A stretch of 64,000 nt of DNA, from NCBI GenBank assembly GCA_024400875.1, contig JAKSMB010000003.1, positions 83,381-147,380 of the forward strand, given 5' to 3'. The stretch is from Bacteroidales bacterium (GTDB lineage Bacteria; Bacteroidota; Bacteroidia; Bacteroidales; WCHB1-69). The notes under the pieces are model-generated. The model was not told the DNA's origin. It saw nothing but the letters and a program-made list of their open reading frames with translations, and ran no database searches. Position 1 is the first letter of the stretch; every line of letters begins with the position of its first letter. Shown here in pieces: positions 8,632 to 58,514 of the stretch. The translations under genes and the position numbers were made by a program.

Positions 8632-8637
8632 TGATTA

Positions 8638-10098
8638 TTAGAACTTACAACCAATGGTGGCAGCTACACGATGTGTTTCGTTTTTGATCATGTATGGATA
8701 ACTTCCTTGATATAAGGTGTAGTTATCAGAGGAGAATCTTAAAGCGTATGCCAGGTTGCAGAAGAAATATTTGCTTCTATAACCTATGCCAACGGAGGCT
8801 GTATGCGCAGAGGCATTGTATTCGTTGTCAACTAATTTATAAGGAGATGTTCTATAGTTGTAACCTAAGCGTACAAGGAATTTAGGATTTAGTGCAATTT
8901 CACCTCCTATCTTGATGGTGTGACAAGCAGCAAAAGTGTTCACAACATCTTGGTTGGCTTCATCAAAATAGAGCCAGTTGTTGTCGTTTATGTCGTTATT
9001 TGAGGCAATCAAGCGTGACATTCTATAGTCAATGAAATCATATTCAACAGCGATGAATGCACGTTGTTTGATGATAAATGAGGATGCAAGGTTGAATCTC
9101 AATGGAGTGCTCAGTCCGAATCGGTTGTAATTGATGTATTCATCGCTTGCATCGCTGCCAATGACCCATTGAGAAGCCATGTATCGATTGTAGGTGTCTT
9201 TGATTCTGAAGAAGTAAGATGGGGTTTGCAGTGAAGCACCTAGACGTAAGAAATTGACTGGCTGATAAATGATGCCTAACTTGGCGTTGATACCAGCACC
9301 GCTGTTCTTTTGAATGGTCTGAACTGTGTATGAGGTGCATCCTTGTATGTTGTTGTCATAGGTAGGAGATTCTTTGTAGCTCGTTTTTTCTGTGTAGTCA
9401 AGCACAGGAACTCCGATGCTACCACCAATGTAGAGTTGGTCGTTATAATTACCACCAAAGGTAAATGACATCTCGTCCATAGCTCCAGAAGTGGTGATAA
9501 TTGCATTTTGATCAAGCCATTCGCCACTCAATGGTGAGAAATATTGATTTGTAGTGCCTGGGATAGTGTCAATTAACCAGGTTTCCCAAGCCAAGTAAGC
9601 ATCACCTTGCAAGTTGGTGAAAGGTGTGCCATTTGCTCTATCTAAAATAGGGTCAATCATGGATATGGTACCAGACGTTGCCGCACGGAAAGAGTTGTTA
9701 TAGTCCATGATACGGTTGTACCCGAATCCAAATTGCCAGGTTTTCCAAGAGGAGTTGTTGATAGGTGTTGCAATGACTAATCCACATTCAGGAACAGTGT
9801 ATTTAGGAGAATGGCTACCTGTAAGAGTCCCATTGCTGCCCAGTGTTGTGTTGTTTGAAAATGAAAGGGCAAGGGGTGTGAATGTCACCTCGCTTCTTTT
9901 AAAAAGGCCGATGGCAGCCGGGTTTATACTTAGTGCGGAGAACTCGCCACCTGTGGCGCTGAAAGCACCGCCGGCACCCAAAAAACGTGCGGTACCTTGA
10001 TAATCAATCTGTGAGAATCGAAATGCTTCGTATGAACCTTGTCCAAACGCAAGGCAGATTGCAATGGTCAATATGATGGTTGATAGTATCTTTTTCAT
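8638..10098 (-). CDS. Outer-membrane beta-barrel protein, FadL/OmpP1-like
   Basis: Signal peptide ending AFGQ. GTARFLGAGGAFSATGGEFSALSINPAAIG resembles the G.GGA..A..D.sA...NPAgl N-terminal motif of FadL-family barrels. The sequence shows alternating beta-strand patterning and a C-terminal aromatic residue (...ATIGCKF). Confidence 0.65.
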   Translation of the reverse strand: MKKILSTIILTIAICLAFGQGSYEAFRFSQIDYQGTARFLGAGGAFSATGGEFSALSINPAAIGLFKRSEVTFTPLALSFSNNTTLGSNGTLTGSHSPKYTVPECGLVIATPINNSSWKTWQFGFGYNRIMDYNNSFRAATSGTISMIDPILDRANGTPFTNLQGDAYLAWETWLIDTIPGTTNQYFSPLSGEWLDQNAIITTSGAMDEMSFTFGGNYNDQLYIGGSIGVPVLDYTEKTSYKESPTYDNNIQGCTSYTVQTIQKNSGAGINAKLGIIYQPVNFLRLGASLQTPSYFFRIKDTYNRYMASQWVIGSDASDEYINYNRFGLSTPLRFNLASSFIIKQRAFIAVEYDFIDYRMSRLIASNNDINDNNWLYFDEANQDVVNTFAACHTIKIGGEIALNPKFLVRLGYNYRTSPYKLVDNEYNASAHTASVGIGYRSKYFFCNLAYALRFSSDNYTLYQGSYPYMIKNETHRVAATIGCKF

Positions 10099-10139
10099 TG
10101 TATTTTTTTTTATTTTATGATTTGTTATTCAAAGGTTTA

Positions 10140-11858: not shown

Positions 11859-11979
11859 AATAAACCTCCTTATATCTTTTATTTTCGTACTTTTGCAAAA
11901 CAATTTAATGACGGCAAAAATAGTAAAAAGTTAAGTCTTTCAAGTAAAAAAAAGTTAATAATAAAATATAATAGAAACA

Positions 11980-14229: not shown

Positions 14230-14253
14230 GCAGAGTGAAAATTGAATAATAAT

Positions 14254-16176
14254 ATGTATAATTATAAAATAGTATATATAATATTAATGTCAATATTTAT
14301 CTCCTTTACGGGGATGGCTCAGAAATCTTCAAAAGCTGCTGCTATTTGTCAGAAAGCAGAGCAATGTATCAATGCCCGCGACTTTGATAAGGCATTAACT
14401 CTGCTTCGTCAAGCTAAGTTGAAAGACCCTTCTTATGCAGATACCTATGTTTTGATGGGCGATGTCTTCAATTTCACTTTGATGTCTGACTCTGCGTTGA
14501 AATGTTATAATCGTGCAATTGATTTGATAGGAAATCCTGATCCAATGCTCTATTTTATAGCTGCAGGAGAGGGAGTGAAATGTGGGCAATATGAAAATGC
14601 ACTGAAAAACTACGAGAATTTCATGCTTAAGGGTTTACAGTATACGGATGTTTTGGCCGATGCACAAAAGGCAATTGCGAATTGTAAATTCGCAATTGAG
14701 GCAATGAAACATCCCGTTACATTCCAGATGGAGAACTTAGGCCCGAATGTCAATTCAGAGTGGGATGAATCATTAGCAGCTATCACTGCCGATGACGAAC
14801 AACTGGTTTTCACGGTGAATCGTCCCAAAGACAATAAAACCATTTGCGCATTCTGCCTCAATGAGGAAGATTTGTATTACTCTACAAAGAAAAATGGTGA
14901 ATGGATGAGTCGACAAGCCATAGGCTCTCCTATTAAAACCGGCTATAACGAGGGTGCTCAATGTCTGTCTCCTGATGGCACCTACTTGCTTTATACTATG
15001 TGCAATGCTGATTTTGGAATGGGTAGTTGCGATCTTTATTGGTCAAAACGAATGGGTGACAAGTGGTCCCGACCACGAAATTTTGGCGCACCAGTTAATA
15101 CTGCAGCCTGGGAATCTCAACCTACAATGGCAGCTGATGGCAAAACTATCTATTTTGTTTCTTCTCGCCCGGGTGGGTTTGGAGGAATGGATATTTGGAA
15201 AACGACGATGACTGCAGAGGGTGCATTTACGGCCCCTGAAAATCTGGGTGCATCAATCAATACTCCAGGTGATGATGCGGCTCCGTTTATTCATAGCGAT
15301 GGTCGTACCTTGTATTTTGCTTCCAATGGACGCGTAGGAATGGGAGGTTATGATCTCTACTATGCTACATTGCAAGATGATGGAACTTGGAGCGAACCAA
15401 AGAATCTGGGTTATCCAATAAACACCTCTGCTGATGAAATTAACATTTTTATTAATGCAGCTGGTACCACGGCCTATATGGCATCCGATAAGTCTGGGGG
15501 CTATGGTGGCTTGGATTTGTATAGCTTTGAATTGGCAGAAGAACTTAGACCAAACCCTGTTACGTATATTAAGGGTAGAGTGGTGGATGCCGAAAGTGGT
15601 TTGCCATTGGCCTCAACAATAGAGATGCTCGATCTTGAAAGTAAAGAATTACTTACCAAGACCAATTCAGATGCAACTACAGGTGAGTACTTGGCGTGCA
15701 TACATACAGGTAGTAATGTTATGCTTAACGTATCTAATCCTGGATACCCGTTCTACTCGGAGAATTTCCAATTAGAGAAATCATACACAGAACTATCCCC
15801 GTATCGTAAAGATATTCGATTGAAGCCAGCGGAGGTTGGAACAGCTTTCATCTTGAAGAATATCTTCTTCGATTTCAATCAAAGCCAGTTGAAAGAAGAG
15901 TCCTTCTTGGAGTTGGACCGTCTTGTTGAATATCTGAAGCACAACAATGTGAAGATTGAGATCGGAGGACATACCGATGATCAGGGTACGGACGATTATA
16001 ATGATAAGTTGTCACATAATCGTGCGAAGGCAGTTTACGATTACATTATCCAGAAAGGTATCCCAGTTGATCGACTGAGTTATAAAGGTTATGGAAAACG
16101 CAAGCCTATTGCCGATAATTCAACAGAGGTTGGACGAGCCGCTAACCGCCGGACTGAATTTATAATAGTAAAGTAA
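14254..16176 (+). CDS. OmpA-family protein with the PorE domain order (TPR, PD40/TolB-like beta-propeller, carboxypeptidase-regulatory-like domain, OmpA_C)
   Basis: N-terminal TPR-like helices. Repeated PD40-type motifs follow (LSPDGTYLLYT, MAADGKTIYFVSSRPGGFGGMDIW, HSDGRTLYFASNGRVGMGGYDLY, GTTAYMASDKSGGYGGLDLY). Then IKGRVVDAESGLPLASTIE (CarboxypepD_reg-like) and OmpA_C (NIFFDFNQSQL...IGGHTDDQGTDDYNDKLSHNRAKAV...NRRTEFIIV). An alternative TTG start lies at 14242. Confidence 0.8.
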   Translation: MYNYKIVYIILMSIFISFTGMAQKSSKAAAICQKAEQCINARDFDKALTLLRQAKLKDPSYADTYVLMGDVFNFTLMSDSALKCYNRAIDLIGNPDPMLYFIAAGEGVKCGQYENALKNYENFMLKGLQYTDVLADAQKAIANCKFAIEAMKHPVTFQMENLGPNVNSEWDESLAAITADDEQLVFTVNRPKDNKTICAFCLNEEDLYYSTKKNGEWMSRQAIGSPIKTGYNEGAQCLSPDGTYLLYTMCNADFGMGSCDLYWSKRMGDKWSRPRNFGAPVNTAAWESQPTMAADGKTIYFVSSRPGGFGGMDIWKTTMTAEGAFTAPENLGASINTPGDDAAPFIHSDGRTLYFASNGRVGMGGYDLYYATLQDDGTWSEPKNLGYPINTSADEINIFINAAGTTAYMASDKSGGYGGLDLYSFELAEELRPNPVTYIKGRVVDAESGLPLASTIEMLDLESKELLTKTNSDATTGEYLACIHTGSNVMLNVSNPGYPFYSENFQLEKSYTELSPYRKDIRLKPAEVGTAFILKNIFFDFNQSQLKEESFLELDRLVEYLKHNNVKIEIGGHTDDQGTDDYNDKLSHNRAKAVYDYIIQKGIPVDRLSYKGYGKRKPIADNSTEVGRAANRRTEFIIVK

Positions 16177-16183
16177 TAATAAA

Positions 16184-16210
16184 ATCCCTTCGTTTCGAAG
16201 GGATTTTTTG
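16184..16210 (+). terminator. Rho-independent terminator
   Basis: Hairpin atcccttcg-ttt-cgaagggat followed by T6. Confidence 0.8.
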
Positions 16211-16419
16211 TTATAAAAGAATTAGGTGTTTTTTTAAGACTATTTTGTTGATAAAGTAGACGACCATATATAATATAACGTGCTGATTTAAAATAATATG
16301 AAATAAAGTTTCACACCGATAAAGCGAAGAAAATGAAAGAAATCCGCTGATTTGAAGGTCTGTTGGTTGAAAAAAAACCAAAAAAAAGTAAAATGGGAAA
16401 TAATTGTAAAAAAAAAATG

Positions 16420-16427
16420 TATTTTTG
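16420..16427 (+). promoter_or_regulatory. -7 promoter box TATTTTTG upstream of the giant gene
   Basis: Matches TAnnTTTG. It is preceded by an A10 tract (16408-16417) and leaves a ~100-nt AT-rich leader before the ATG at 16533. Confidence 0.5.
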
Positions 16428-16532
16428 CAAGTTGTTTATTTAGTATAGTGTATTATAATGTATAATCTTAAAAAACAAACTGTTATAGGAAAAAACGAAT
16501 AAAATAATTTATAACAAACTAAAAATTAAAGT

Positions 16533-19500
16533 ATGAAAAAACTATTATCAATTTGCTTGCTCAGCATGTTGATGCTCTTTGCGGCGTTTAGCGCGTCTGC
16601 ACAGGCAACAACAAAATGCTGCTTCTGGCTGGAAAACATGCAGCCAGATCAGGTGACTGATGTGGCCAACATCCCTGGTGGAGGCCCTGCTGCAACCGTT
16701 GGCAATGGTGGCTCCATGTACTTGAATAACTCCCTTAACTGGGTTGGTGGTCCAAGTACGTATGGCGTGAATACTGCTGCCTACGGTATTGTATCAAGTA
16801 CTGCTTATCCTTTCAGTGCTACTGAGGGACAGACAGACTGGTACAGAATCCATTTTACTAACAATTGCAACCTTCCTGAAGGAACACAAGTTGCTTTGGA
16901 ATGGAAATTGTACCGTGATGGTCAACGTATTCCTGATGATCAAATCAGCCAATATGCTGACATCTATTTCTACACTAAGTTTGACGAGTTGTCAAATACA
17001 AACAATGTGAACTCTACTTGCGGTCATATTGGTTGGTTAGGTGGTAGAGTGTATGGTCCTGGCGTATGTCAAGATCTTCACAATGATTGTGTAGGTGGTT
17101 ATCCTGGCGCCGCTGAAGTTGATGGTTCAGAACAACTCCCTTATGCTGCATTCGGTTGGAGCGCTCAAGGTTATGTTAACTTGGCTGCTTCTTATCATTA
17201 TGATTACTTCAATTTGCCTTTCTTCTCAACAACAGAACATAGAATGGCTATCCACTGGAAACAAATTGGTAACTATTCTGTAGTAGTTGGTCTTCGTGCT
17301 CGTACCGGTGGTACAGATTTCGACATCGCTCAAGTTGGTAACATTGGTGGTCACCAAAGTTGCTGTGGAGATCTCCTCGCTCAAGACTCATTGCATTATC
17401 CAGTACTCACTGAACACTATCATGGTGTTTGTGAAAATGCTCCTCATACTCTCTATGGTCAACCTGAAGCTGACTTCTCAGTTGAAGGCGACTATCGCGT
17501 AGTATTCGGTTATGATGACTGCGGTCATTTCGTATTGAACAATCTTGATTACTATCACTATCGTGTACGTATCAATCCTGATATCGTAGGTACTGATCTT
17601 TCTCTCTGCAAAAACGAAGCTTTCACTCAAGCTCAAATGTTGGCTCTCGCTCCTGCAGTAAATACAAATGCTCCTGGTATTACAGGTTATCAAGTTTATT
17701 GGTGCAAGGTTGGTACTACCAACTGGACAACCAACCCTACAGTTCAAAGCACTGCTGTTCCTGGCACTTACAAATGGGCTGTTAAACAAGTAAACAATTA
17801 TGACTCTGAAACTGGTGAAACTTTCGATTGCGAAGGTGACATTGATACCTTGACAATTACTATCCTCCCAGTTATCGATCCTTCTTTGGATGGAACTAAT
17901 CCTTCTTACGAATTCTGTAATGAAACTATCGATGCAAACTCTAGCTTATTAATTAAGGCTAAGTTGAACAACACTGCTGAAAACGACTGCGCTGATGAGA
18001 TTCATTGGTTTAGAGGTACAACTCACAATGGTACTCCTGCATTCGTAGGTGCTGGTTATACTCTCAACTTGCATGATTTGTATGATAACAATAATAATAA
18101 AGATGTAACATTCACTGCATGGTCATATGATGTTCACACTAATACTTATTCTGATAATGGTGTTAGCGTTAATCTTCATTTCTATGCAACACCAGAGTTG
18201 ACAGCTAACGCAACTACTGAAAGCTTCGTTAAGTGTCCTCACACTCCTGGTATTGAATTGAAGAGTAACTTTGCTGTTACCAACGGTTCAAAAGTTAACC
18301 CTGTAACTTGGGCATACTCTTGGAAGAAGAACAATGTTGCAATGACAGCTACAACAAACAATATTACTGTTGTTGCTCCTGGTTGTGACCAAACAGATAC
18401 ATACGTAGTTACTGCTACTGTTACTTCAAACCATGGTTGTGTTGCTACGATTACTCGTACTTTCACTGTAAAGGGCGAAGATCTTGCTGCTCCTTCCATC
18501 GCTTGGAGAAATGCTGCAACTGCTAATGTTACTATCCACGGTTGTGATACGACATCCGCAGAATGGACTGCTCCTTATACAATGAGCGACGTTGCTTATG
18601 CAACTGGTACTTCTGTTATCAAGGCTACGGATGGTTGTAGCAATGTTGATAGAATTTATTACTATGCTGAAATCGTTTCTTCTACTCCTTGTACAACTGT
18701 AGTAAGAAGAAATTACTATGTAAAAGATGAATGTGGTAACCAATCCAACACTATTTCTCAAACTGTTACCATCATTAACAACGCTCTTCCAGTAGTTACT
18801 CCGAGCGTTCTTGATGTAACTGTTTCTAACACTCAAGATACTGCTATCCACAATGATCCTTTCAACAACTGGTACAGATATTCTTGGAACCAAGATATCT
18901 TCACAGCTTCTGAAATCGGTGGCGCCGGCGTTATCAACTCAGTTTCTTATAACTGTGTCAATGTTGGTACTGGTGTTAACATGACGGATGTAAGAATTTA
19001 TGTTGCTGAAACTACTAACGATCTTCATACATCAAATACACAATGGATCCCAGCTGATCAATTGACTCTTGTTTATGAAGGTTCTCGTAATATCAGACAA
19101 ACTGGTGAAATCAAGTTTGATTTCAACCAACCTTATCTCTATGATGGTACAAAGAATTTGGTTGTAGTTGTTGCTAAGAAAACTGCAAATTACAATTCTG
19201 CTGTTCGTTTCGCTGCTACACACTTAGCAAAAGCAAGTTTGTATCGCGTTTCCGATTCTTATGATACATATGCAAATCATCCTGGTACAACTACAGGTAC
19301 ATATGGTGTTAATCGTGCTAATGCAAGATTTGTCATCAGCAACCCTGTTACTGTTGCTCCAGTTTGGTCTAACACAAACGATTGTACTCTGGATGCTCCT
19401 GCATACAGCGTTTTCAAAACCGCTTTCGATGCAAACTACAATGTATCCACATCTTGCAATGCTGAAGTAGAACACGTTTATTTCTACAATCATGGTACTC

Positions 19501-22500
19501 AAGTTTCTGCAGCAAACTTCCACAATTTGTTTGCTACAAACGATGATTTCTATGTAGATGCTGTTGTTGTTGACCAATGTGGTAACACTACTACTGTTCC
19601 TAGCGCTTTCGTTCTTCATCGTCCAGAAAGAATGTCTATCGATCACAATGCATACGCAGTTCCTACAGAAATCTGTTTGAACGAAACTTCTATGTTGCAT
19701 TTCGACTATACAAAGGTTAACAATGCACAACTTCCTTACACATTCAGCTGGACAGGTGATCCTAACAATGGTCACATCCTTCGTAACCACGATGCTGATG
19801 GTGCTGAGGCTATTCCTTACTTGCCAAATACTGATTATAGATATTACATCACTGTAACTGACGCTTACGGTTGTCAAGCAGTTGACTCAACAGGTCTTGT
19901 ACACGTTAACGGTCTCCCAGCTGCTTACATTACTGAAAATCCTATCAATGATGACTATGCACACGCTGGTACTATCCCTACCGTATGTCCTAACTTCGGT
20001 AACTTCTTGGTAGAAGCTGTTGCAGTTAACGGTTTAGGTGACGCTACTCCAGTTTCTTATAAGTGGACTGGTGAATCTTGCGATACCAACTCTACAAACC
20101 AATACTCTTCAATCCACGTTATTCCTACTGAATGTAACCGCGATTATACTATCCGTTTGCATGTGACTAACGTTAAGGGTTGTTCTGTAGATACTCTCTA
20201 CACAATTCACGCTGAAGATACTCAGGCTCCAGTAATCACTGGCGTAATCACTTCTGAAGTTCTCCCAGTTTCAACTGGTAGCAGCTGCGAAACTTACGTT
20301 CCTGATTATACTACTCTCTTGAACAACACTAATACATCTGATAACTGCTGGAGCTTTGGTACCCTCCAAATTACTCAATCACCTGTTCCAGGTACAGTAG
20401 TTGATGCAGACTCTATGGTTGTTTCCCTTTATGTAAAAGACGTTTGTGGTAATCAAGCCATTCACAACATTATGGTTCGCCGTCCAGGTAACTTGCTTCA
20501 AGTTGCTCTTACTACAGATAATAACAATTTCTGCTACGGTGAAACTGCTCATATCACTTCTACTGTTGCTAACAATGTAGGTACTGTAGTTTATACTTGG
20601 ACTCCTGCATTCGGTAACGTTGCTGCTATTGATTACACCCCAGCTATTGTAAATGTTGATTCTATGATTTATCCTGTAACCGTTAATGTACTTGATCAAG
20701 CTAACGGTTGTACTGCATCTTCAACATTGAACTTGGTAGTTTACCACGTTCCTACAGCTGCTGACGTTAATATCACAACTACTCCAAACAATTACTGTGA
20801 CAATGCTTCTAACATTAGCAATGGTACTATTTCAGTTTCTGTTCTTCAAAATAACATTACTGAATACAAACTTTCTACCGACGCTACTTGGCATCCAATT
20901 GATTATGTTTACACTGGTTTACACCAAGGTACATATTATATTGATTTGAAAACTGCTCACGGTTGTGTTGAATACGGTTTCCGTACCAATGTATTGTTCG
21001 ACACATTGCCAGACACTTTCACATTGTTAACATCTGCTAACTCTTATTGTACTGCTCCTTTCGATGGTACAATTACTGTTGAAAATGGTAAAGCTAATTA
21101 TTCTTACTCACTTGAACGTACAGCTTATACTCCTCTCAGAGTTATCAACCCAACAACTGCTGGTCCTGTATTGTTCGACGAATTAGAAAATGGTCTTTAC
21201 ACAATGCACATCACAACTGACAAATTCTGTGTTTACGAAATGAGAGACATCGAAGTTGCTGACGCTCGCGTATTCCCAGTTTTGGCTGCTGCTGATTATA
21301 CTACAACTCCACGTACAATCTGTGGTAACAACAATGGTACTATCACCATTAACAATATCAATCCTGATTATACTTACACTCTTGGTGCTGTTTCATTCGA
21401 CGGTGCTACTGCATCTACAATCTCATTCGTAGGTTTGGCTGCTGGTACACAAAACTTGACCATCACAACTAACAAGGGTTGTTCTATGACCTTCGGTTTG
21501 ATCGTTGACGATGCTACTGAAGCTCCTGTTGCTCCACGTACAAACATCGTAGCTAACACAAATTGTACAGGAACACCTAACGGTAGCATTACTGTTATTG
21601 CTCCTATCATGGGTTACACCTATACAATCGGTACTGAAACTATCGTTTATGACGGCACAAACGCTGTTGTATTCAACAACCTTGCTGCTGGTACATATAC
21701 AATGACAGTTATTTCAGATCTGAACTGCGATAACGTATTCGTTTTTGAAGTTACAAACAACTTCACAAACCCACAAATCCCTGCATCTTCAATCAACATT
21801 ACTCATCGTACAGACTGTATCAATCCTAACGGTGCTATCACTTTGAGCGCAGTTGGTCTTGAACCTTCATTCACATACGATGTTGTAAGCGCTACTGGCG
21901 TTAATGCTAACACTGGTCTCGCTGAAGGTACTTACACCATCACTAAGACTTATGTTGCTACAGGTTGTTCTTCTACAGCTACTGCAACAGTAGAAATGGT
22001 TGCTCCTGCATACAGAATGAACATCACTGCTACTCCTGATGAGGATTGTTCTACTATCGGTACAGGTTCTCTTACTGTAACAAATAGCGATGCTGCTGAC
22101 TACACCTTCATTTTGAACCACGGTTCTGCTGATGCTGTAACTGCTGCTGCTAATACTTTCACAGGTCTTGAACCAGGTACTTATACAATTCGTGCTATCA
22201 ACAATGCTACTCATTGTTATACAGATAAGACTGTTGAAGTTGGTAATCACTATACAATGCCAGCTCTTACCGTTGTTTCTACATCTGCTAATAACAACTG
22301 TTCTGAAAATAAGGACGGTCGCGTAGTTGTTGCTACTACAAACATTACTTCTGGTATGACTTACACTCTCGGTTCTGTAACTAATACTACTGGTTTCTTC
22401 ACCAACTTGAATAGCGGTAATTATACAATCGAAGCAATCTCTGCTCTCCATTGTGCTGCTACTATCAATGTTACAGTTGCTGATAACGCTTTCATTCCAT

Positions 22501-25500
22501 GCTTAGCTGTTACAACAAATCCTAACACTGCATGTATTGAAACTCCTTCTAAACCAGGTAATGGTCAAATTATCGTAAACTGCCCACGTGGTGATCAATA
22601 TGATTACTCATTCTACTATGCAAACACTGGTTCTACAACAGATGAAGCTATTCCTCACTTCGAACCAATCGCTTACATGAAGTATACATTGCATGATGGT
22701 GACTATCGTGTACACATCACTGACCAAATCACTGGTTGTGTTAAGGATACTATCGTTCACGTTGACTTCGCTCCTGCTACTTTGAATATTACTACTTCAG
22801 CTGTTGCTAACACTGCTTGTGCTGCTCCATATAATGGCACACTTACAGTTAACGCTGCTTACGGTGTTTATTCATTAGACGCTGACGCTGTATTCACATA
22901 CAGTATTGATAATGGTCTTCACTTCACATTAGACAACGTATTTACTGGTTTGAATGCTGGCAACTATGATGTTATCGTTAAAGATACTGTAACAGGTTGT
23001 ACATACAATCTCGCTGCTGCTAATGTTCCTGCAGGTTCTAATGATATTACTATTATCCAACCTCGCGACACTGTATTCTGTTTGCATTCTGAAGCTATCT
23101 TGACAGCTGCTGCTATCAGTACAATCCCTGGTGATACTAATTTCATCTACACTTGGAATAGCATTTGCCAAGGTCAATATGTTGGCAACCCATATCGTTG
23201 GAACACTAACAACCCTGATACTTGTGATGTTTATTTGACCGCTACCAGCACATTGACTGGCTGTTCAGAATCTATCATCTTCAAGGTAATGGTTAAGGCT
23301 GATCCTACCGTTAAGTTCTTCGCTGATGGTATTGAAACTGGTCATGAATTCGCTGCTTGTGGTAACACATTCCCTCACACTATTTCTGCTACTGGTGCTG
23401 ATGTAGTATCTCACAGCTGGTCAAATGGTGTTACAGAAGCTTCCTTCGTACTTGATACCATGGCTGAAGGTTATACCTGTATGTTCGTTGACAACTTCGT
23501 TGACAAATACGGTTGTGCTTCTTCTGACTCTATCCGCGTAAGATCATTGCCACGTCCTCGTACAACTGTTGAATTGAACATCTGTGCTTCTATTCCTGTT
23601 GATACACTTGGTACAACTTTGACTTACATCGCTGGTGATGACGCTAACAACAATCAAACTATCGTAAGAACATACGCTAATGCTGCTGTTAACGGTTGCG
23701 ATAGCATCGTTACTTACAATGTACATTTGATGGCTAAACCAGAAGTTACTATCAACGCTGACTTCACTACTGAATACTGTGCCGGTAATGCTTTGGCTCC
23801 AGCTCCAGTGATGAACATTAACTGGAACAACAATACTGGTTCTTATCGTTGGATGAATGGTACTACACTCGTAAGCAATGCTTCTATTAACGCTCTTCCA
23901 TTCTCATTGGATGGCGCTGATCTCTATGTTATTGCTCAAAACGCTTGTGGTACTACTGAAAGCGCTCACAATACAATTAAGGTTAACGACAAACCTGCTG
24001 TTGCTGATCTCGCTTCAGCATTGACCGTTTGCGTTGGCGATTGTGTTGCTGATAAGATTGGTGCTCCTGCTCATACATGTAATCATCATAATGGTTGTAC
24101 AACTCAATGGATGATGAACGGTGTTGAAATGGCTGCAACTACTCTTGCTACCAACGACATGAATGGTGCACAAATCACCTACGTTGTAACAAATGATTGT
24201 GGTTCTACAACAGTTGGTCCTTTGACCCTCACTGTTAAGGATTCTGCAATGTTGGCATTCACAACTCCTGCTGTTGATACACTTTGCGCTGGCAATACTC
24301 TTACAATCAATGTAACGACTAAGGCTACCAACGTATTCACAGCTACTGCTGACAATGATAACTTCACTATCAACACTACAGGTTCTAATGGCAACTATGT
24401 TGTTAAGTTGACTCCTCGCAGCATTGCTACTGCTGGTGCAACAACATTCACCTTCACATCCGCTTCTGATTGTGGTTCTAAGGATAGAACATTCGCTATC
24501 GTTGCTGCTTACCCAGCAAATGTTGGCAATGTTGAAGCAATTGCTCCTGTATGTTACAATGATGTTCTTTCATTGACAACTCCTTCTGTACAAAATAACA
24601 ATTCTGCTATCTATGCTGAAGGTTGGGAAATCAATATGCCTGGTACTACTACTTGGACTTCATTTGATCCAGCTACACACATGACAATGGCTCACAATGG
24701 TGCATCTATCCGTTATTTCGTAACTACAAGATGTCAAACCAGCTATTCTCCTGCACGTACTGTTGTAGTGGATACTCTCCCAGTTGCTACTCTTACCAAC
24801 TCTGTAGCTGAATACTGCGCTGGTGATGTTCTCTCTGCTAGCACATTCACATACACTCAAACGAATGCTACTGCTACTCAAGGTACTGTTACCGCTGAAT
24901 TCTACTTCGATGGTGCTGCTTATACAAACGCTCCACTCGCAGTTACTGACAACGGTAAGGAAGCATATTACATGCTCACCAACAGATGTGGTTCAAACGC
25001 TTCTGAAAAGGTTGCTATCGTAGTTAACGATACCGCTATCATTTCTTACAATGCTGCTGACCTTACTGTTAAGGTTTGTTCAGGTTCTTCTATCGAAATC
25101 CCATTCACATCTAATAAGCCTGTTGTATTCACACCGAATAACTTCAATTTCGAATATGATGCAACTGCTCACAAGATCGTTTCTGGTGCTATCACAGGTG
25201 CTGCTTGCAACAACTTCTCAGTTGTAGCTACTGCTACTGATGGTAAGTGTACTGACAAAGATAAGAGCGTAACACTCAACATTACTGTTAAGACTGCTCC
25301 TTTCGTTGCTCTTACAGTTGATTCAATCTGTGAAGGTAACACATTCGCAAGTGTTAAACATGTAACAATTCAAAATCAATGTTCAGATGGTATTAGTTCT
25401 ACTATCTCATTGAGACGAGTTGATAACTCAGTAGAAGCTCCTCTTGCTGATGCATACGTATTCACAGCTGCTGATACCAATGCTATCATCACGTTGTCTG

Positions 25501-27320
25501 CTTCTAATGATTGTGGTGTTTCTAACATTTCAGCTGTTGCTCTTGTTTCACTTCCTGTACAAGTTGCTGACATCGCTACTGTTGATACATGTAAGGGTCA
25601 ACCTCTCGCTGACTTCGTAACCGTTCCTGCTCTCACTGTTAAGGGTAACACCACAGTAACTGCTCAAGGTTGGCAAGTTAAGAATGGTTCTGAATGGACC
25701 AACGTTGAAGATTCTTACGTTGTAAACGCTGACGCAACTGTTCGTTACTATGCTACTACACGTTGCAACAGCTACTACTCTGCTGAAGCTACTATCCGCA
25801 TCCACGAAGCTCCTACATTCAATGCTGAAATCGCTAACATTGAAATCTGCTCTAACGAAGCTATTACTGAGCCTACTATCGATGTTAATATGCATGGTGC
25901 TACTCCAGTTGATACAACTTGGACAATCCAAAGAACTTCTGATGCTACTGCACAACCATTCACATTCGGTCAAATCGACCTCTATGATGTAACTTACAAC
26001 AACGCTACTATCACCTGTACGGTTAAGAATACTTGTGGCGAAGCTTCTTCTACTGCAAGATTGATCGTTGACACATTGCCTGTTCCTACAATTACGAAGG
26101 ATACAGTAGTATGTCAAGGTGGTGTTGCTAACTTGTCTGCTACTGCAGGTTATGCTTCATATCAATGGTCTATGGATGGCGCTGAAATCGCTGGTGCTAC
26201 TGCTGCTACTTATGCTTACCCAGCTCCTACAACGGATGGTTTCCATACCTTCACAGTAGAAGTTGTTGATGGCAATGGTTGTAAGTCTGTAACCAACATC
26301 AATGGTACATTCGATCCTATCGCTGATGATGCTGTAACTGTTGAAGTAACTAACAAACCTCGTTTCATCTTTACAGATGCTGATGGTAATGTAACACGTC
26401 ATACAACTGCTACTACTGCAGATCCTATGAATGTTCACACTTGGATGATCAATAATCCATGTTACAACCCAGATACTTTGGTTTACGTTGAAATGAGATA
26501 CTTCTACAATGGTGAACTCATCCCAGAAGATAGCATCACATCTTACCTCACCGAAATGACAACATCTCAAAACGGTGCTAATGTTCAATACACAACATCT
26601 GAGTACATGTCTTGGTTGTCAGGTGATAACAGTAACCGTGATTATACGAACTACTACTTCTCAGCTGCTCCAGCTAATGGTACATCTATTGAAGGTACAC
26701 ACTTCCCACACAACGGTCTTGGCTTAGGTGGTACTACATATGTATATGACTGCTTGTACCTCCACTTCTTGGGTAACAGACCTGTAACTGAAACTATCAA
26801 CCAGTTCCGTCGTCCAGGTAAGTACACTGTAGAATATAAGCTCTATTCTGTAAGTGGTGCTGCTATCAATGGTCAGTTGTATTATAATGAAGAAGATACA
26901 ACAACCTATAAACTTGGTGGTCAGGATGCTTTGATTTCTACATACTCTCGTGCCCTCCTCGCTACTGATACCTTCGTAATTGAAGTTTCTGGTAATGCTC
27001 TTGCTAATCCAGTAGCTGATGTGGTCGTTCCTGAATTGGCTCCTGTAGCAACAAATACTGCTTCTGCATCTATGAACGTTTATCCTAACCCAGCTACTGA
27101 TAACATCAACGTTAACATTAGCGGTATCACAGGTGAAACTACTATCAGAATTGCTAACCTTGCTGGTGTAACAGTTGTTGCTCCTGTAACAGTTAACATT
27201 CCTGCTGATGCAGAATACATCTACAGAACTTCTATCAACGGTCTTGCTTCTGGTATCTACTTCATCCACGTTCAAGGTGAAAATGCTACCCTCTCAAGAA
27301 AACTCGTTGTAACGAAATAA
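16533..27320 (+). CDS. Giant (3595 aa) T9SS-secreted multi-repeat surface protein (adhesin-like)
   Basis: A single uninterrupted ORF with signal peptide MKKLLSICLLSMLMLFAAFSASAQA. Several HYR/Ig-like modules end in the (T/K)D.CGN....Q.V.I motif (VKDECGNQSNTISQTVTI, VVDQCGNTT, VKDVCGNQA). There are nine ~85-aa SprB-like Cys-bracketed modules, about ten further Cys-bracketed Ig-like modules, and a C-terminal YPNP sorting domain. Confidence 0.9.
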   Translation: MKKLLSICLLSMLMLFAAFSASAQATTKCCFWLENMQPDQVTDVANIPGGGPAATVGNGGSMYLNNSLNWVGGPSTYGVNTAAYGIVSSTAYPFSATEGQTDWYRIHFTNNCNLPEGTQVALEWKLYRDGQRIPDDQISQYADIYFYTKFDELSNTNNVNSTCGHIGWLGGRVYGPGVCQDLHNDCVGGYPGAAEVDGSEQLPYAAFGWSAQGYVNLAASYHYDYFNLPFFSTTEHRMAIHWKQIGNYSVVVGLRARTGGTDFDIAQVGNIGGHQSCCGDLLAQDSLHYPVLTEHYHGVCENAPHTLYGQPEADFSVEGDYRVVFGYDDCGHFVLNNLDYYHYRVRINPDIVGTDLSLCKNEAFTQAQMLALAPAVNTNAPGITGYQVYWCKVGTTNWTTNPTVQSTAVPGTYKWAVKQVNNYDSETGETFDCEGDIDTLTITILPVIDPSLDGTNPSYEFCNETIDANSSLLIKAKLNNTAENDCADEIHWFRGTTHNGTPAFVGAGYTLNLHDLYDNNNNKDVTFTAWSYDVHTNTYSDNGVSVNLHFYATPELTANATTESFVKCPHTPGIELKSNFAVTNGSKVNPVTWAYSWKKNNVAMTATTNNITVVAPGCDQTDTYVVTATVTSNHGCVATITRTFTVKGEDLAAPSIAWRNAATANVTIHGCDTTSAEWTAPYTMSDVAYATGTSVIKATDGCSNVDRIYYYAEIVSSTPCTTVVRRNYYVKDECGNQSNTISQTVTIINNALPVVTPSVLDVTVSNTQDTAIHNDPFNNWYRYSWNQDIFTASEIGGAGVINSVSYNCVNVGTGVNMTDVRIYVAETTNDLHTSNTQWIPADQLTLVYEGSRNIRQTGEIKFDFNQPYLYDGTKNLVVVVAKKTANYNSAVRFAATHLAKASLYRVSDSYDTYANHPGTTTGTYGVNRANARFVISNPVTVAPVWSNTNDCTLDAPAYSVFKTAFDANYNVSTSCNAEVEHVYFYNHGTQVSAANFHNLFATNDDFYVDAVVVDQCGNTTTVPSAFVLHRPERMSIDHNAYAVPTEICLNETSMLHFDYTKVNNAQLPYTFSWTGDPNNGHILRNHDADGAEAIPYLPNTDYRYYITVTDAYGCQAVDSTGLVHVNGLPAAYITENPINDDYAHAGTIPTVCPNFGNFLVEAVAVNGLGDATPVSYKWTGESCDTNSTNQYSSIHVIPTECNRDYTIRLHVTNVKGCSVDTLYTIHAEDTQAPVITGVITSEVLPVSTGSSCETYVPDYTTLLNNTNTSDNCWSFGTLQITQSPVPGTVVDADSMVVSLYVKDVCGNQAIHNIMVRRPGNLLQVALTTDNNNFCYGETAHITSTVANNVGTVVYTWTPAFGNVAAIDYTPAIVNVDSMIYPVTVNVLDQANGCTASSTLNLVVYHVPTAADVNITTTPNNYCDNASNISNGTISVSVLQNNITEYKLSTDATWHPIDYVYTGLHQGTYYIDLKTAHGCVEYGFRTNVLFDTLPDTFTLLTSANSYCTAPFDGTITVENGKANYSYSLERTAYTPLRVINPTTAGPVLFDELENGLYTMHITTDKFCVYEMRDIEVADARVFPVLAAADYTTTPRTICGNNNGTITINNINPDYTYTLGAVSFDGATASTISFVGLAAGTQNLTITTNKGCSMTFGLIVDDATEAPVAPRTNIVANTNCTGTPNGSITVIAPIMGYTYTIGTETIVYDGTNAVVFNNLAAGTYTMTVISDLNCDNVFVFEVTNNFTNPQIPASSINITHRTDCINPNGAITLSAVGLEPSFTYDVVSATGVNANTGLAEGTYTITKTYVATGCSSTATATVEMVAPAYRMNITATPDEDCSTIGTGSLTVTNSDAADYTFILNHGSADAVTAAANTFTGLEPGTYTIRAINNATHCYTDKTVEVGNHYTMPALTVVSTSANNNCSENKDGRVVVATTNITSGMTYTLGSVTNTTGFFTNLNSGNYTIEAISALHCAATINVTVADNAFIPCLAVTTNPNTACIETPSKPGNGQIIVNCPRGDQYDYSFYYANTGSTTDEAIPHFEPIAYMKYTLHDGDYRVHITDQITGCVKDTIVHVDFAPATLNITTSAVANTACAAPYNGTLTVNAAYGVYSLDADAVFTYSIDNGLHFTLDNVFTGLNAGNYDVIVKDTVTGCTYNLAAANVPAGSNDITIIQPRDTVFCLHSEAILTAAAISTIPGDTNFIYTWNSICQGQYVGNPYRWNTNNPDTCDVYLTATSTLTGCSESIIFKVMVKADPTVKFFADGIETGHEFAACGNTFPHTISATGADVVSHSWSNGVTEASFVLDTMAEGYTCMFVDNFVDKYGCASSDSIRVRSLPRPRTTVELNICASIPVDTLGTTLTYIAGDDANNNQTIVRTYANAAVNGCDSIVTYNVHLMAKPEVTINADFTTEYCAGNALAPAPVMNINWNNNTGSYRWMNGTTLVSNASINALPFSLDGADLYVIAQNACGTTESAHNTIKVNDKPAVADLASALTVCVGDCVADKIGAPAHTCNHHNGCTTQWMMNGVEMAATTLATNDMNGAQITYVVTNDCGSTTVGPLTLTVKDSAMLAFTTPAVDTLCAGNTLTINVTTKATNVFTATADNDNFTINTTGSNGNYVVKLTPRSIATAGATTFTFTSASDCGSKDRTFAIVAAYPANVGNVEAIAPVCYNDVLSLTTPSVQNNNSAIYAEGWEINMPGTTTWTSFDPATHMTMAHNGASIRYFVTTRCQTSYSPARTVVVDTLPVATLTNSVAEYCAGDVLSASTFTYTQTNATATQGTVTAEFYFDGAAYTNAPLAVTDNGKEAYYMLTNRCGSNASEKVAIVVNDTAIISYNAADLTVKVCSGSSIEIPFTSNKPVVFTPNNFNFEYDATAHKIVSGAITGAACNNFSVVATATDGKCTDKDKSVTLNITVKTAPFVALTVDSICEGNTFASVKHVTIQNQCSDGISSTISLRRVDNSVEAPLADAYVFTAADTNAIITLSASNDCGVSNISAVALVSLPVQVADIATVDTCKGQPLADFVTVPALTVKGNTTVTAQGWQVKNGSEWTNVEDSYVVNADATVRYYATTRCNSYYSAEATIRIHEAPTFNAEIANIEICSNEAITEPTIDVNMHGATPVDTTWTIQRTSDATAQPFTFGQIDLYDVTYNNATITCTVKNTCGEASSTARLIVDTLPVPTITKDTVVCQGGVANLSATAGYASYQWSMDGAEIAGATAATYAYPAPTTDGFHTFTVEVVDGNGCKSVTNINGTFDPIADDAVTVEVTNKPRFIFTDADGNVTRHTTATTADPMNVHTWMINNPCYNPDTLVYVEMRYFYNGELIPEDSITSYLTEMTTSQNGANVQYTTSEYMSWLSGDNSNRDYTNYYFSAAPANGTSIEGTHFPHNGLGLGGTTYVYDCLYLHFLGNRPVTETINQFRRPGKYTVEYKLYSVSGAAINGQLYYNEEDTTTYKLGGQDALISTYSRALLATDTFVIEVSGNALANPVADVVVPELAPVATNTASASMNVYPNPATDNINVNISGITGETTIRIANLAGVTVVAPVTVNIPADAEYIYRTSINGLASGIYFIHVQGENATLSRKLVVTK
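20767..23055 (+). repeat. Array of nine diverged ~85-aa protein modules (SprB-repeat-like) inside the giant gene
   Basis: Each unit reads roughly T.(T/S)....C.....NG.I.V......Y(T/S)Y.L......F.GL..G.Y.......... .C. Examples are TTTPRTICGNNNGTITINNINPDYTYTLG...GLAAGTQNLTITTNKGC and VANTNCTGTPNGSITVIAPIMGYTYTIG...NLAAGTYTMTVISDLNC. The units are diverged at the DNA level. Confidence 0.75.
23764..26315 (+). repeat. Second array of about 10 diverged ~80-95-aa Cys-bracketed Ig-like modules inside the giant gene
   Basis: Units begin with (Y/V/I)C.G(N/D) and end with a second Cys about 65-75 aa later. Examples are EYCAGNALAP...IAQNACGTTES, EYCAGDVLSA...LTNRCGSNAS, DSICEGNTFA...SASNDCGVSN, VDTCKGQPLA...ATTRCNSYYS and IEICSNEAIT...VKNTCGEASS. 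Confidence 0.7.
27072..27317 (+). other. T9SS C-terminal sorting domain (type A) of the giant protein
   Basis: MNVYPNPATDNINVNISGITGETTIRIANLAGVTVVAPVTVNIPADAEYIYRTSINGLASGIYFIHVQGENATLSRKLVVTK. Confidence 0.85.
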
Positions 27321-27342
27321 TTCTAAACTACGATAAACTCAA

Positions 27343-27372
27343 GGGAGTTGTGGACTCACAACTCCCTTTTTT
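27343..27372 (+). terminator. Rho-independent terminator after the giant gene
   Basis: Hairpin gggagttgtg-gact-cacaactccc followed by T6. Confidence 0.85.
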
Positions 27373-27381
27373 ATTATTAAA

Positions 27382-29172
27382 ATGAAAAGTCACAAAATCT
27401 CACATCTGGTTTTTAAGCGCTATGTAGGTAAACTTAGTTTAGTTTTCCTACTGAATATGTGTTCAGTGCTTCTTACCATTTCTGTTTTTGTGATGATTGA
27501 ACCGTTTTGCAAATTGCTCTTCCGTGGTTCACTGGATGAATTGAGCCCTATATCTTCGTTCATCATTTCTTTCATTGAGCCAGTAATAGACCTTCGCACC
27601 ACTCAGATCTCTATTGTTGTCTTACTCGTGGTGGCCTTGGTGTTGTATTTCCTTAAATCGCTTTTTGCCTATGCCTCACAATGGGTAATGGCCTCCATGC
27701 GAAGCGACCTGCTATATAAGCTGCGAAATGATTTGTATCGTAAGATACTTGTTCTCCCTATTGGCTATTTCAGTGGACAAAAGAGAGGTGATGTTATCTC
27801 ACGTGCCGTTGCCGACACTCAGGAGGTACAGAATACTATTCTAAGCGCAATCCGTTCTTTCCTGACTGAACCTATTACGGTGGTCTTTTACGTTTTCTTC
27901 CTCTTTTATCTTAATGTAAAACTTTCTCTGTATGCCATCTTAATCTTCCCAGTAACCTTCTTGGTGATCGGACGTCTTTCCAATGTCTTAAAAAAGGATG
28001 TCCGTACTTCAAAGAAACGTTTGGGTTCTCTACTTGCTCACGTAGAAGAATGCATTTCTGGTGTTAGGGTGGTGAAGGGACTGAATGCACAAGTTCCCGC
28101 GGAAACAACGTTCAGACGCTTGAACGACGAGTTTACCAGATCACAGACGATAATTTACCGTAGAGCGGATCTTGCCTCGCCATTGAGTGAGTTTCTTGGA
28201 GTCTCTATAGTAATGGTGATTTTAGTGATTGGTGGTACGATGACCTTTAAATCACCTGGGCAATTTCCCGCTGAAATATTCATTACCTATATTGCTCTTT
28301 TTTCTCAGTTGATAACACCATTGAAAAACATCTCTACGGCTATTGCCGGTTATAAACGCGGCGTTGCTGCCATGGACCGCATTAATGAAATAATGGATGC
28401 AGAAGAGGTGATACTTCAGCCTCAACATCCAGTTCTGTTGTCAGATTTCACTGATAAAATCTCGTTCAACCATATAGATTTCTCATATACAACGACACCA
28501 GTACTTACCGACTTTAATCTTGAAATACATAAAGGACAAATGGTGGCACTGGTTGGCCCATCCGGTTCGGGAAAAACCACCGTCATGGACATGGTAGAAC
28601 GGTTTTATGATCCAATAAAAGGTACGATCACTTTAGATGGAACAGATATCCGCGATTTTGATATTCCGTCATACCGTTCGCTCTTTTCTTTGGTTTCACA
28701 GGATATCGTTCTTTTCAACGATACATTATATAACAATATAACTATGGGTAAAGATGCCTCTGAGGAAGAGGTGCTGGAAGCTATTCGTATTGCTAATCTC
28801 GAAAATTTTGTTGCTACACTTGAGAATGGGGTGTATCATCAGCTCAGTGATCGAGGATTGAATTTGTCGGGTGGACAGCGTCAGCGTATCAGTATTGCGC
28901 GAGCCGTATTGCGCAATTCTCCCATTCTATTATTGGATGAGGCAACATCTGCCATGGATACGCAATCGGAACGTTTTGTTCAGATGGCCCTCGATAATGT
29001 TATGAAAAACCGTACGGTGATTGTGGTTGCACACCGTTTGTCCACTATTCAACATGCCGATAATATCGTCGTTTTGGAAAATGGAAAGATAGTAGAACAA
29101 GGCTCCCATAATGAACTCCTGGCTATTGAGGGGGCATATAAAAAATTAGTAAACATACAACAATTTAATTAA
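27382..29172 (+). CDS. ABC transporter permease/ATP-binding fusion protein (MsbA-like exporter)
   Basis: N-terminal six-helix TMD, then an NBD with GPSGSGKTT (Walker A), LSGGQRQRISIARA (signature) and ILLLDEATSAMD (Walker B). Confidence 0.85.
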   Translation: MKSHKISHLVFKRYVGKLSLVFLLNMCSVLLTISVFVMIEPFCKLLFRGSLDELSPISSFIISFIEPVIDLRTTQISIVVLLVVALVLYFLKSLFAYASQWVMASMRSDLLYKLRNDLYRKILVLPIGYFSGQKRGDVISRAVADTQEVQNTILSAIRSFLTEPITVVFYVFFLFYLNVKLSLYAILIFPVTFLVIGRLSNVLKKDVRTSKKRLGSLLAHVEECISGVRVVKGLNAQVPAETTFRRLNDEFTRSQTIIYRRADLASPLSEFLGVSIVMVILVIGGTMTFKSPGQFPAEIFITYIALFSQLITPLKNISTAIAGYKRGVAAMDRINEIMDAEEVILQPQHPVLLSDFTDKISFNHIDFSYTTTPVLTDFNLEIHKGQMVALVGPSGSGKTTVMDMVERFYDPIKGTITLDGTDIRDFDIPSYRSLFSLVSQDIVLFNDTLYNNITMGKDASEEEVLEAIRIANLENFVATLENGVYHQLSDRGLNLSGGQRQRISIARAVLRNSPILLLDEATSAMDTQSERFVQMALDNVMKNRTVIVVAHRLSTIQHADNIVVLENGKIVEQGSHNELLAIEGAYKKLVNIQQFN

Positions 29173-58429: not shown

Positions 58430-58514
58430 ACGTTGCTGAATTATATGTATGGGCGTCAAAAACGACTGTTAGAAAAAAACTTACATTTGTTTTTGCGTCA
58501 TACGACAATTTTTT

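Follow-up and report, generated by a model that had tools for sequence, protein, structure and literature searches.

Giant cargo proteins of type IX secretion systems (T9SS) are the main surface-contact structures of many Bacteroidota, and to our knowledge only SprB, RemA and GhpA have been studied among them so far. SprB of Flavobacterium johnsoniae, a repeat-rich cell-surface protein of 6,497 amino acids (aa), carries a C-terminal domain (CTD) of type B and needs SprF, which is encoded directly downstream, while RemA is an adhesin that combines a type-A CTD with a lectin domain (PMC12618676). Cargo with a type-A CTD is taken up by the PorV shuttle and is then anchored or released (PMC12618676); PMC9143113 and PMC4804311 describe PorU and linkage to anionic lipopolysaccharide (A-LPS) for CTD-bearing cargo. 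GhpA is a T9SS substrate of 5,898 aa with 52 disulfide-braced immunoglobulin (Ig)-like repeats and an N-terminal region that forms a distal hook, and ghpA is followed in Aureispira by homologues of PorP and PorE, which have been proposed as the GhpA anchor (bioRxiv 10.1101/2024.01.29.577165). Here we describe a giant gene in a 64,000-nucleotide stretch of DNA from a Bacteroidales bacterium (contig JAKSMB010000003.1 of assembly GCA_024400875.1, positions 83,381 to 147,380 of the forward strand), which we call the window and to which all positions below refer. Its product of 3595 aa is most likely a T9SS-secreted repeat fibre of a known general kind, from an unnamed family of uncultured Bacteroidales, and not a new system. 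Its sequence makes it fairly probable that the protein is a Sec- and T9SS-exported, surface-anchored fibrillar adhesin under diversifying recombination.

That the protein is T9SS type-A cargo is established by the sequence features examined here. Pfam and NCBIfam models were scanned against the whole protein and against ten domain-aware slices, and the sole region above any threshold was the CTD at the extreme C-terminus (aa 3516-3593), where PF18962 scored 41.4 bits in the whole protein and 50.9 bits in the slice scan (cutoff 27) and TIGR04183 scored 37 bits (cutoff 23). The type-B model TIGR04131 gave no NCBIfam match at E<=1. The signal peptide was read off the sequence (MKK, a hydrophobic core and ASA followed by Q) and from its conservation; it is near-invariant across the family and the +1 residue is always Gln, which fits the Q-rule of Bacteroidetes (PMC5837995, PMC10653852). 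These results bear out the initial annotation, which had taken the gene to encode a giant multidomain surface protein exported as type-A cargo, with a signal peptide at one end and a type-A CTD at the other. A second type-A cargo gene in the window and a PorE-like neighbour, both described below, also indicate a T9SS-bearing organism. Within the signal peptide, the stretch MKKLLSICFLS is almost invariant in the family at the DNA and the protein level while the mature protein drops to about 30% identity. A lipoprotein signal (LSIC, aa 5-8) was considered and rejected, since the segment before it is too short and the ASA/Q site is conserved. The protein has a mass of 384 kDa without the signal peptide and 375 kDa without the CTD as well, a pI of about 4.5 and a Thr content of 13.4%; the open reading frame (ORF) holds 95 Cys codons, and 94 Cys are left once the signal peptide is removed.

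The anatomy of the mature protein was derived from self-comparison and Cys spacing (Table 1). Two different Cys-bracketed repeat arrays had been recognized beforehand, and they stand up as arrays of nine and ten repeats with two near-invariant Cys in each repeat; between arrays A and B, hhalign found no homology (probability 0.9%). Array A has the consensus T..N..C....NG.ITV....Y.....F.GL..G.YT.....GC....V and gave sub-threshold matches to the SprB repeat PF13573 (best 13.7 bits, E 0.051, cutoff 28; none in the whole-protein scan at E<=1) and to Y_Y_Y, SdrD_B and SpaA. The Y_Y_Y match of the repeats reached 22.8 bits (cutoff 26.6), and SdrD_B, SpaA and DUF2141 are prealbumin-like beta-sandwich families. 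A profile of array A weakly matched the beta-sandwich repeats of NOMO2 (E 7e-4) and GhpA (PDB 9flp, E 0.033, 17.6 bits over 30 residues), and a single-sequence search of the PDB returned nothing. Array B gave a sub-threshold match to Ig_7 (20.6 bits, cutoff 27.3) and its last repeat one to PKD_4, and its profile matched a phage tail protein (9c2d, E 2.7e-5) and the PKD domain of PrtV (4l9d, E 0.022). The Ig-like block at aa 346-754 had no Pfam match. The region after the N-terminal domain had been described as HYR/Ig-like modules ending in a D.CGN motif; the motif is present in three copies (aa 732, 1014 and 1303), but no HYR model (PF02494) matched at E<=1 in the whole protein or at E<=5 in the slices. 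No catalytic domain was found by Pfam or NCBIfam in the whole protein or in slices. With no catalytic domain in about 3,490 residues and at least about 30 beta-sandwich modules, arrays A and B can be read as a stalk. Tandem or long direct repeats were not found at the DNA level in the giant gene, which suggests that the arrays are old and makes slipped-strand variation unlikely.

Table 1. Features of the giant gene and its surroundings, and DNA identity of the window to the related locus L009. Positions are those of the window.
Feature	Residues (aa)	Position	Strand	Remarks
PorE-like or CHU_0125-like neighbour		14242-16176	+	Pfam TPR, PD40 beta-propeller and OmpA_C
Conserved promoter block with Bacteroidetes-type -7 box TATTTTTG		16410-16433	+	box at 16420-16427
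A/U-rich leader, ~100 nt		16434-16532	+	inferred transcription start site; 5' part conserved
Giant ORF	1-3595	16533-27320	+	ATG start, 3595 codons, no internal stops
Sec signal peptide	1-23	16533-16601	+	MKKLLSICLLSMLMLFAAFSASA followed by Q; predicted signal peptidase I (SPase I) cut between ASA and Q24
N-terminal bookend domain	24-345	16602-17567	+	best-conserved part of the family; alignment A2
Ig-like block of Cys-containing beta-sandwich modules	346-754	17568-18794	+	ends ...KDECGNQSNTISQTVTIIN
Facultative jelly-roll module	755-934	18795-19334	+	allele indel; AlphaFold2 model; profile search
Middle PKD-like/Ig-like block	935-1409	19335-20759	+	two D.CGN motifs; K319L-like PKD sub-threshold (16.8 bits)
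Array A, 9 repeats of ~84 aa	1410-2170	20760-23042	+	self-comparison, Cys spacing
Cys-rich Ig-like linker block	2171-2403	23043-23741	+	Cys spacing
Array B, 10 repeats of ~86 aa	2404-3250	23742-26282	+	C.G..L ... W ... N.CG; PKD/Ig_7-like
Second bookend copy, directly before the CTD	3251-3515	26283-27077	+	hhalign A2 versus A3
T9SS type-A CTD	3516-3595	27078-27317	+	PF18962, TIGR04183; YPNPA, GIYF and KLVVTK motifs
Intrinsic terminator of the giant gene		27341-27378	+	12-bp stem, 4-nt loop, T-run; stem plus T-run also given as 27341-27368; best in region
Identity to L009		16001-23500		99-100%
Identity to L009		24001-25500		66-69%
Identity to L009		25501-26500		95-96%
Identity to L009		26501-27000		80%
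Identity to L009, ABC gene		27501-28500		80-84%
Identity to L009		29001 onwards		100%

A giant repeat protein with a T9SS CTD recalls the gliding-motility adhesins of the SprB or RemA type, which are propelled along the cell surface. Like SprB, the protein is a giant, repeat-rich surface cargo, and the first half of the array A consensus (C....NG.ITV....Y.Y) resembles the SprB repeat, a likeness backed only by the 13.7-bit Pfam match. The match is less than half of the 28-bit cutoff, the CTD is of type A rather than type B, and an MsbA-like ATP-binding cassette (ABC) transporter gene lies downstream where an sprF-like gene would be expected; with repeat model, CTD type and sprF neighbour all lacking, membership of the SprB family was rejected. 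SprB itself turns static or is released when given a type-A CTD (PMC12618676). In favour of a gliding adhesin, a type-A CTD and a lectin domain do occur together in RemA (PMC12618676). With RemA and the type-A CTD adhesins of P. gingivalis and T. forsythia the protein shares a CTD of the kind handled by PorV, anchoring or release, and a sugar-binding-type module on a repeat protein. RemA is much smaller, however, and carries a lectin domain, while the head, bookend and jelly-roll domains of the present family are uncurated; the gingipain and Hag adhesins carry Cleaved_Adhesin (PF07675), which was undetected in the giant protein. The relatives are rumen and gut anaerobes, and no gliding genes were seen in the 64-kb window. 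We regard a role in gliding as very unlikely.

The N-terminal domain is where family members are most alike, with the motifs CCFW, WKLYRDG, GYPGA and IGGHQSCCG. It had been called Cys- and aromatic-rich, and the aromatic half of this description is correct (Phe, Trp and Tyr 14.0% versus 9.6% overall) whereas Cys is hardly enriched (3.1% versus 2.6%). Profiles of this domain (A2, 20 sequences) and of the domain before the CTD (A3, 18 sequences) were compared by hhalign, and the N-terminal domain proved homologous to aa ~3299-3490 (probability 98.2%, E 5.9e-14, 178 columns). The giant protein thus begins and, before its CTD, ends with the same kind of domain, and we refer to the two copies as bookends. 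An AlphaFold2 (AF2) model of the N-terminal copy is beta-rich and moderately confident, with long low-confidence loops and a predicted local distance difference test score (pLDDT) of 71; a profile search of the PDB found no sequence relative, and the best Foldseek match there had E 0.013 and a template modelling (TM) score of 0.15. The N-terminal domain and the Ig-like block that follows it are conserved together as an N-terminal block of about 755 aa, which is at most 55% identical in relatives. By analogy with SprB, RemA and especially GhpA, we read this best-conserved block, with or without the jelly-roll module, as a probable distal binding head.

Next to the putative head sits a module of about 170 aa that the initial annotation had placed at 18840-19330 and could not assign to any family. 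The module is real, its limits shift slightly outwards (Table 1), and we could not assign it either, as searches of Pfam, NCBIfam and PDB sequences (the last with a single sequence and with a profile) gave no match. Its boundaries are best seen in P0003, P0005 and P0006, three close alleles with 88-93% identity in the rest of the protein, in which an 11-aa linker, SAKTGVTMPVV, replaces the module; the junctions in the window protein are ...TIINNALPVV/TPSVLD... and ...NPVT/VAPVWSNTNDC.... More distant family members have one to three copies. The AF2 model is an all-beta jelly roll (pLDDT 89, predicted TM score 0.87), and residues conserved in the module alignment (A1) include QQIY, E40, W84, YD..NL and R174. 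The sole weak hidden Markov model (HMM) match on the module was SdrG_C_C (15.5 bits, cutoff 24.4). A Cleaved_Adhesin or choice-of-anchor J identity, an idea prompted by PF07675 in three relatives, was rejected, as there is no PF07675 or NCBIfam match here.

An exhaustive profile search of 1.84 billion cluster representatives found the module in 13,514 of them at E<=1e-3 and in 2,732 at E<=1e-30, and the best 148 matches carry 3-14 copies per protein. A word-indexed homologue search with the same alignment returned 0 matches at E<=1e-5, as against 13,514 in the exhaustive search, a limitation of the search tool. Elsewhere the module is combined with T9SS CTD, fn3, MAM, cadherin-like and Flg_new_2 domains, in proteins from Prevotella and metagenome-assembled genomes (MAGs) of Bacteroidales that are named only ‘fibronectin type III’, ‘cadherin-like’ or ‘hypothetical’. 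Judging from these sequences, the module is a common, uncurated domain of a binding type and is not unique to the giant gene. The phage protein A0A6J5NL19 (BFVD, uncultured Caudovirales) was similar in structure to 18795-19352 (TM 0.82, E 2.8e-11, root-mean-square deviation 2.9, 19% identity), and the next matches among viral models, at TM ~0.5, were collagen-repeat tail-fibre-like and minor tail proteins. The comparison of models suggests that this domain is exchanged or common between phage receptor-binding proteins and bacterial surface proteins.

The nearest solved folds, at a TM score of about 0.48, are the carbohydrate-binding modules (CBMs) of acetylxylan esterases (AcXE, 7toj and 7tok), the lectin-like domain of Cwp84 (4ci7), CBM32, PHR and the Eph ligand-binding domain. 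Across the jelly-roll CBM, lectin and phage tail-fibre-type domains sequence identity is 8-19%, with no curated HMM match. Together with the rumen-type source, these folds could point to a released, CBM-bearing carbohydrate-active scaffold acting on plant fibre. Such a function is scarcely probable, since the CBM likeness is weak (8-14% identity), some close alleles do without the module, and Pfam and NCBIfam scans of the whole protein and of slices revealed no domain of a glycoside hydrolase, esterase or lyase.

The window protein was compared segment by segment with its eight closest alleles. Identity flips between about 100% and 50-60% in domain-sized blocks, and segment-wise identity matrices are incongruent, with allele groupings that change between segments. 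Allele P0002 equals the window protein over aa 1-2250 and is 57% identical over array-B repeats 3-7; the same repeats of P0002 are 99% identical to those of P0007, though the N-terminal blocks of the two differ. Repeats 3-7 of array B thus behave as a hypervariable cassette, with 56-57% identity in protein and 66-69% in DNA between flanks of 100% (upstream) and 95-97% (downstream). Length is kept through the cassette in spite of its divergence (both proteins have 3,595 aa), so homologous replacements are indicated. In the pre-CTD domain, the window allele shares 80-82% identity with every other close allele, and the module of P0008 is 43% identical, compared with 66-81% in most of its other blocks. 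At the DNA level, the window alternates between near-identity and marked divergence relative to L009 (Table 1), and identity to L007, a module-less allele, is 83.9% left of the module and 94.8% right of it. The ABC exporter gene is itself mosaic, as 27501-28500 is 98-100% identical to L007 and 100% identical to L011 over the stretch that the L011 contig covers, so recombination tracts reach past the giant gene. The bookend duplication, the indel of the module between close alleles and this block mosaicism had been missed by the initial annotation.

An exposed structure on which phages, protozoa or host antibodies exert diversifying selection would be expected to diverge fast, to exchange cassettes and to have a binding module that is optional. 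These traits would also suit a protective surface coat or decoy, such as an S-layer-like canopy or a shield against phages or protozoa, for which variability would be central and ligand binding incidental. Other observations agree with this: the gene is a core gene at one fixed locus in every relative, its promoter is strongly conserved, the fold of the optional module is shared with a phage protein, and the protein has 27 candidate O-glycosylation motifs, D(S/T)(A/I/L/V/M/T), compared with 18.3 +/- 3.9 expected. No lattice-forming features are known for the giant protein, however, and the conserved N-terminal head favours a specific function at the tip. Coat and adhesin are inseparable by sequence data alone, but we think that a coat is unlikely.

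For the fibrillar adhesin that we favour, the following course of events may be proposed. A monocistronic message would be transcribed from the conserved Bacteroidetes -7 promoter. The protein would be exported by Sec and cut by SPase I after ASA23, and Gln24 would be cyclised to pyroglutamate, as the Q-rule predicts. In the periplasm at least about 30 beta-sandwich modules of about 85 aa would fold, and the pattern of Cys suggests that a Cys pair closes or braces each of them. As for other members of its cargo class, the PorV shuttle would recognise the type-A CTD at the SprA/Sov translocon, the sortase PorU would then cut it off, and the C-terminus so formed would be joined to A-LPS or the protein released. 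Arrays A and B would form a stalk whose length, roughly estimated by counting modules, would be of the order of 100 nm, and this stalk would hold the head of about 755 aa and the optional jelly roll away from the cell. The head may bind a ligand, for example a glycan, plant fibre or another cell. Close alleles would diversify by swapping domain-sized blocks, namely the module, array-B repeats 3-7 and the pre-CTD domain.

Several points weigh against this proposal. All of it beyond the assignment to T9SS type-A cargo is drawn from sequence comparisons. The AF2 models cover two of about ten regions, and the fold of the stalk rests on sub-threshold HMM matches. With no structural relative and a pLDDT of 71 for the N-terminal domain, the ‘binding head’ is argued from where this region lies and how well it is conserved, and the likeness of the module to solved structures is weak (TM ~0.48). 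A type-A CTD may equally mean release into the medium (PMC12618676). The genes for SprA, PorV, PorU and PorKLMN lie outside the 64-kb window. Finally, the mosaics come from metagenome contigs, which can be chimeric; each of the mosaic contigs L007, L010 and L011 was recovered from two samples, which argues against random chimeras without excluding them.

The combination of domains had initially appeared unfamiliar, but it is not unique. A protein search found at least 227 homologues in uncultured Bacteroidales, with the same arrangement in proteins of about 3,300-4,700 aa. The best 120 of the 227 are all 3,314-4,718 aa long and have a T9SS CTD; none of the 120 has a functional name, and the few named sources among them are Bacteroidales MAGs. 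No near-full-length homologue that has been functionally characterised was found, which supports the initial view. Matches in genome collections include rumen MAGs of cattle, water buffalo and yak, and some distant relatives carry PF23237. Literature searches turned up no relevant work on the family in rumen Bacteroidales. The window protein has the features of this unnamed family, that is, the CCFW...IGGHQSCCG domain, the repeat stalk, the second copy of the domain, the type-A CTD and a gene slot between PorE-like and MsbA-like neighbours.

This slot was compared in 14 related loci, including nine distant ones (L001-L006 and L012-L014); 13 of the 14 extend upstream of the giant gene. The giant gene occupies the same slot in all 14, even where the N-terminal domain is 30-34% identical, in the order FadL/PorQ-like barrel, unknown gene, ProRS, MazG, TPR/PD40/OmpA protein, giant gene, MsbA-like ABC exporter and TrmB, followed by SecE, NusG, ribosomal proteins and rpoBC. 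Identities in the nine distant loci are 87-92% for ProRS, 70-75% for the OmpA-family neighbour and 52-62% for the ABC gene, compared with 30-52% for the N-terminal block and 29-47% for the C-terminal part of the giant protein. Sequence and synteny mark the giant gene as part of the core, inherited vertically and evolving faster than its neighbours. It had been taken for the largest accessory element of the window, a view that does not agree with a positional orthologue in 14 of 14 loci within a housekeeping block or with a GC content the same as in the flanks. Horizontal acquisition was rejected in view of the flank-like GC content and the conserved synteny. GC skew is -0.08 to -0.15 across the giant ORF and +0.12 to +0.27 in both flanks (16001-28000), and the negative values are probably due to a composition rich in Thr, Ala, Asn and Val.

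The gene directly upstream bears on a comparison with GhpA. Its product matched the NCBIfam models T9SS_PorE over almost full length (340 bits, cutoff 600) and CHU_0125_OmpA (326 bits), and its second-best PDB match was the C-terminal domain of PorE (6top, E 4e-20). This PorE-like gene precedes the giant gene in all 13 related loci that reach that far. The protein has no lipobox Cys, whereas PorE is a lipoprotein (PMC7192894). Among the neighbours of the giant gene, searches detected no homologue of PorP/SprF.

Like GhpA of Aureispira sp. CCB-QB1, the giant protein is a Sec/T9SS substrate with a presumed distal functional region at the N-terminus, a long stem of probably disulfide-braced Ig-like repeats, likely O-glycosylation of Thr/Ser and an adjacent gene for a PorE-like protein. 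GhpA is larger, has more repeats and forms a heptamer, and a PorP homologue is encoded next to it, for which no counterpart was found here. An oligomeric, outer-membrane-anchored appendage of the GhpA kind would consist of chains lying side by side in a rigid fibre, held by a PorE-like periplasmic anchor and assembled through the bookends. Several observations speak for it: ghpA likewise adjoins PorE and PorP homologues and encodes disulfide-braced Ig-like repeats and a T9SS CTD, the PorE-like adjacency is kept throughout the related loci, the array A profile weakly matches GhpA, and a duplicated terminal domain suits head-to-tail or lateral contacts. Others count against it. The sequence similarity to GhpA is insignificant and the giant protein cannot be placed with it; no PorP/SprF homologue is nearby; anchoring by PorP and PorE has been proposed for type-B cargo (PMC9143113), whereas the CTD here is of type A; the neighbour scores far under the PorE cutoff, is equally CHU_0125-like and has no lipobox; and the adjacency may merely mirror a stable housekeeping neighbourhood. 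We therefore regard a GhpA-like assembly as rather improbable. In its most specific form, which is distinctly doubtful, the protein would be a subunit of a lineage-defining, outer-membrane-anchored multi-chain fibre in an uncultured rumen and gut clade of Bacteroidales. The bookends (aa ~100-300 and ~3300-3490) would drive its assembly, the conserved PorE-like neighbour would fasten it to peptidoglycan even though the CTD is of type A, and the exchangeable jelly-roll and array-B repeats 3-7 cassettes would provide surface variation at the population level. If this were true, anaerobic bacteria of the gut would have a T9SS-built appendage of a new class.

For the gene itself, the initial annotation had proposed one uninterrupted ORF with its own -7 box, a leader of about 100 nt and a strong terminator, and each of these elements finds support. 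The frame is free of stops, and intact ORFs of 3596, 3595, 3586, 3585 and 3597 aa occur in independent assemblies (72-98% identity), so the reading frame is no accident of assembly. The -7 box is the sole TAnnTTTG on the plus strand of the 356-bp intergenic region; over the whole window this motif occurs 67 times, compared with 55.5 +/- 8.3 by chance, i.e. not above chance. An alignment of the 200 bp before the start codon showed that AAAAAAAATGTATTTTTGCARGTT is identical in 10 of 11 orthologous loci and reads TACTTTTG in the remaining one. It sits at -104 to -121 from the ATG and is kept even where the proteins are about 30% identical and the adjoining intergenic DNA has diverged. Such conservation across divergent loci gives good grounds for accepting the promoter as real and, with a predicted transcription start site, for a leader of some 100 nt. 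The terminator ranks strongest in the region. Because the upstream gene has its own hairpin terminator (16181-16207) and the giant gene has a strong one as well, the giant gene appears to be its own transcription unit.

Two further elements in 16340-16470 are conserved across loci, namely the first ~30 nt of the leader, with the block TAGTATAGTGTA..TA.TGTATA, and two A-tracts upstream of the -7 box, GAAAAAAAA.CAAAAAAAA. The A-tracts and the start of the leader may represent a protein-binding or UP-like element. A regulatory RNA was rejected for the leader, since no Rfam family matched and no stable fold was found, the sequence being less structured than shuffled controls (z = +1.25). Phase variation by slipped-strand mispairing or promoter inversion was also discarded, as the DNA showed no tandem or direct repeats and the promoter is not flanked by convincing inverted ones.

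Directly downstream lie the MsbA-like ABC exporter gene (27382-29172, plus strand) and TrmB. The second T9SS type-A cargo gene (2407-4512, plus strand) encodes a Spi inhibitor I69 propeptide, a streptopain-like Peptidase_C10 domain, two CUB domains and Por_Secre_tail, and a gene with C10 and a CTD is also close to the giant gene in the distant relative L013. Four consecutive genes on the minus strand (6576-11903) have no Pfam family above threshold. The gene at 8638-10098 shows a weak PorQ/PorV/FadL-like match (E 2e-7, well short of the cutoff), and this gene and the one at 10140-11903 are present in most related loci and evolve fast (40-56% identity in distant relatives). LptD-like (PF19838) and SecDF genes were found at 55775-61691 on the plus strand. 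Envelope biogenesis is thus well represented in the window, by MsbA-like, LptD and SecDF genes; related loci have SecE at the corresponding position.

The general picture of T9SS adhesins is unchanged by these findings, and a core locus, a conserved promoter, a duplicated domain and mosaic alleles are not very surprising for an exposed surface protein. The family has been seen so far only in uncultured Bacteroidales, in MAGs from the rumen and other host-associated sources, and holds two uncurated domain families, with about 97% of the protein length matching no curated model. One annotation gap is the terminal domain found at both ends of the protein; the other is the jelly-roll domain, which has more than 13,000 cluster representatives and is shared with a phage protein, yet is absent from curated libraries. 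The fixed position of the gene, its invariant promoter and the block-wise exchange between its alleles make it a convenient marker. The locus may prove useful as a test case for the diversification of surface fibres in rumen and gut communities.

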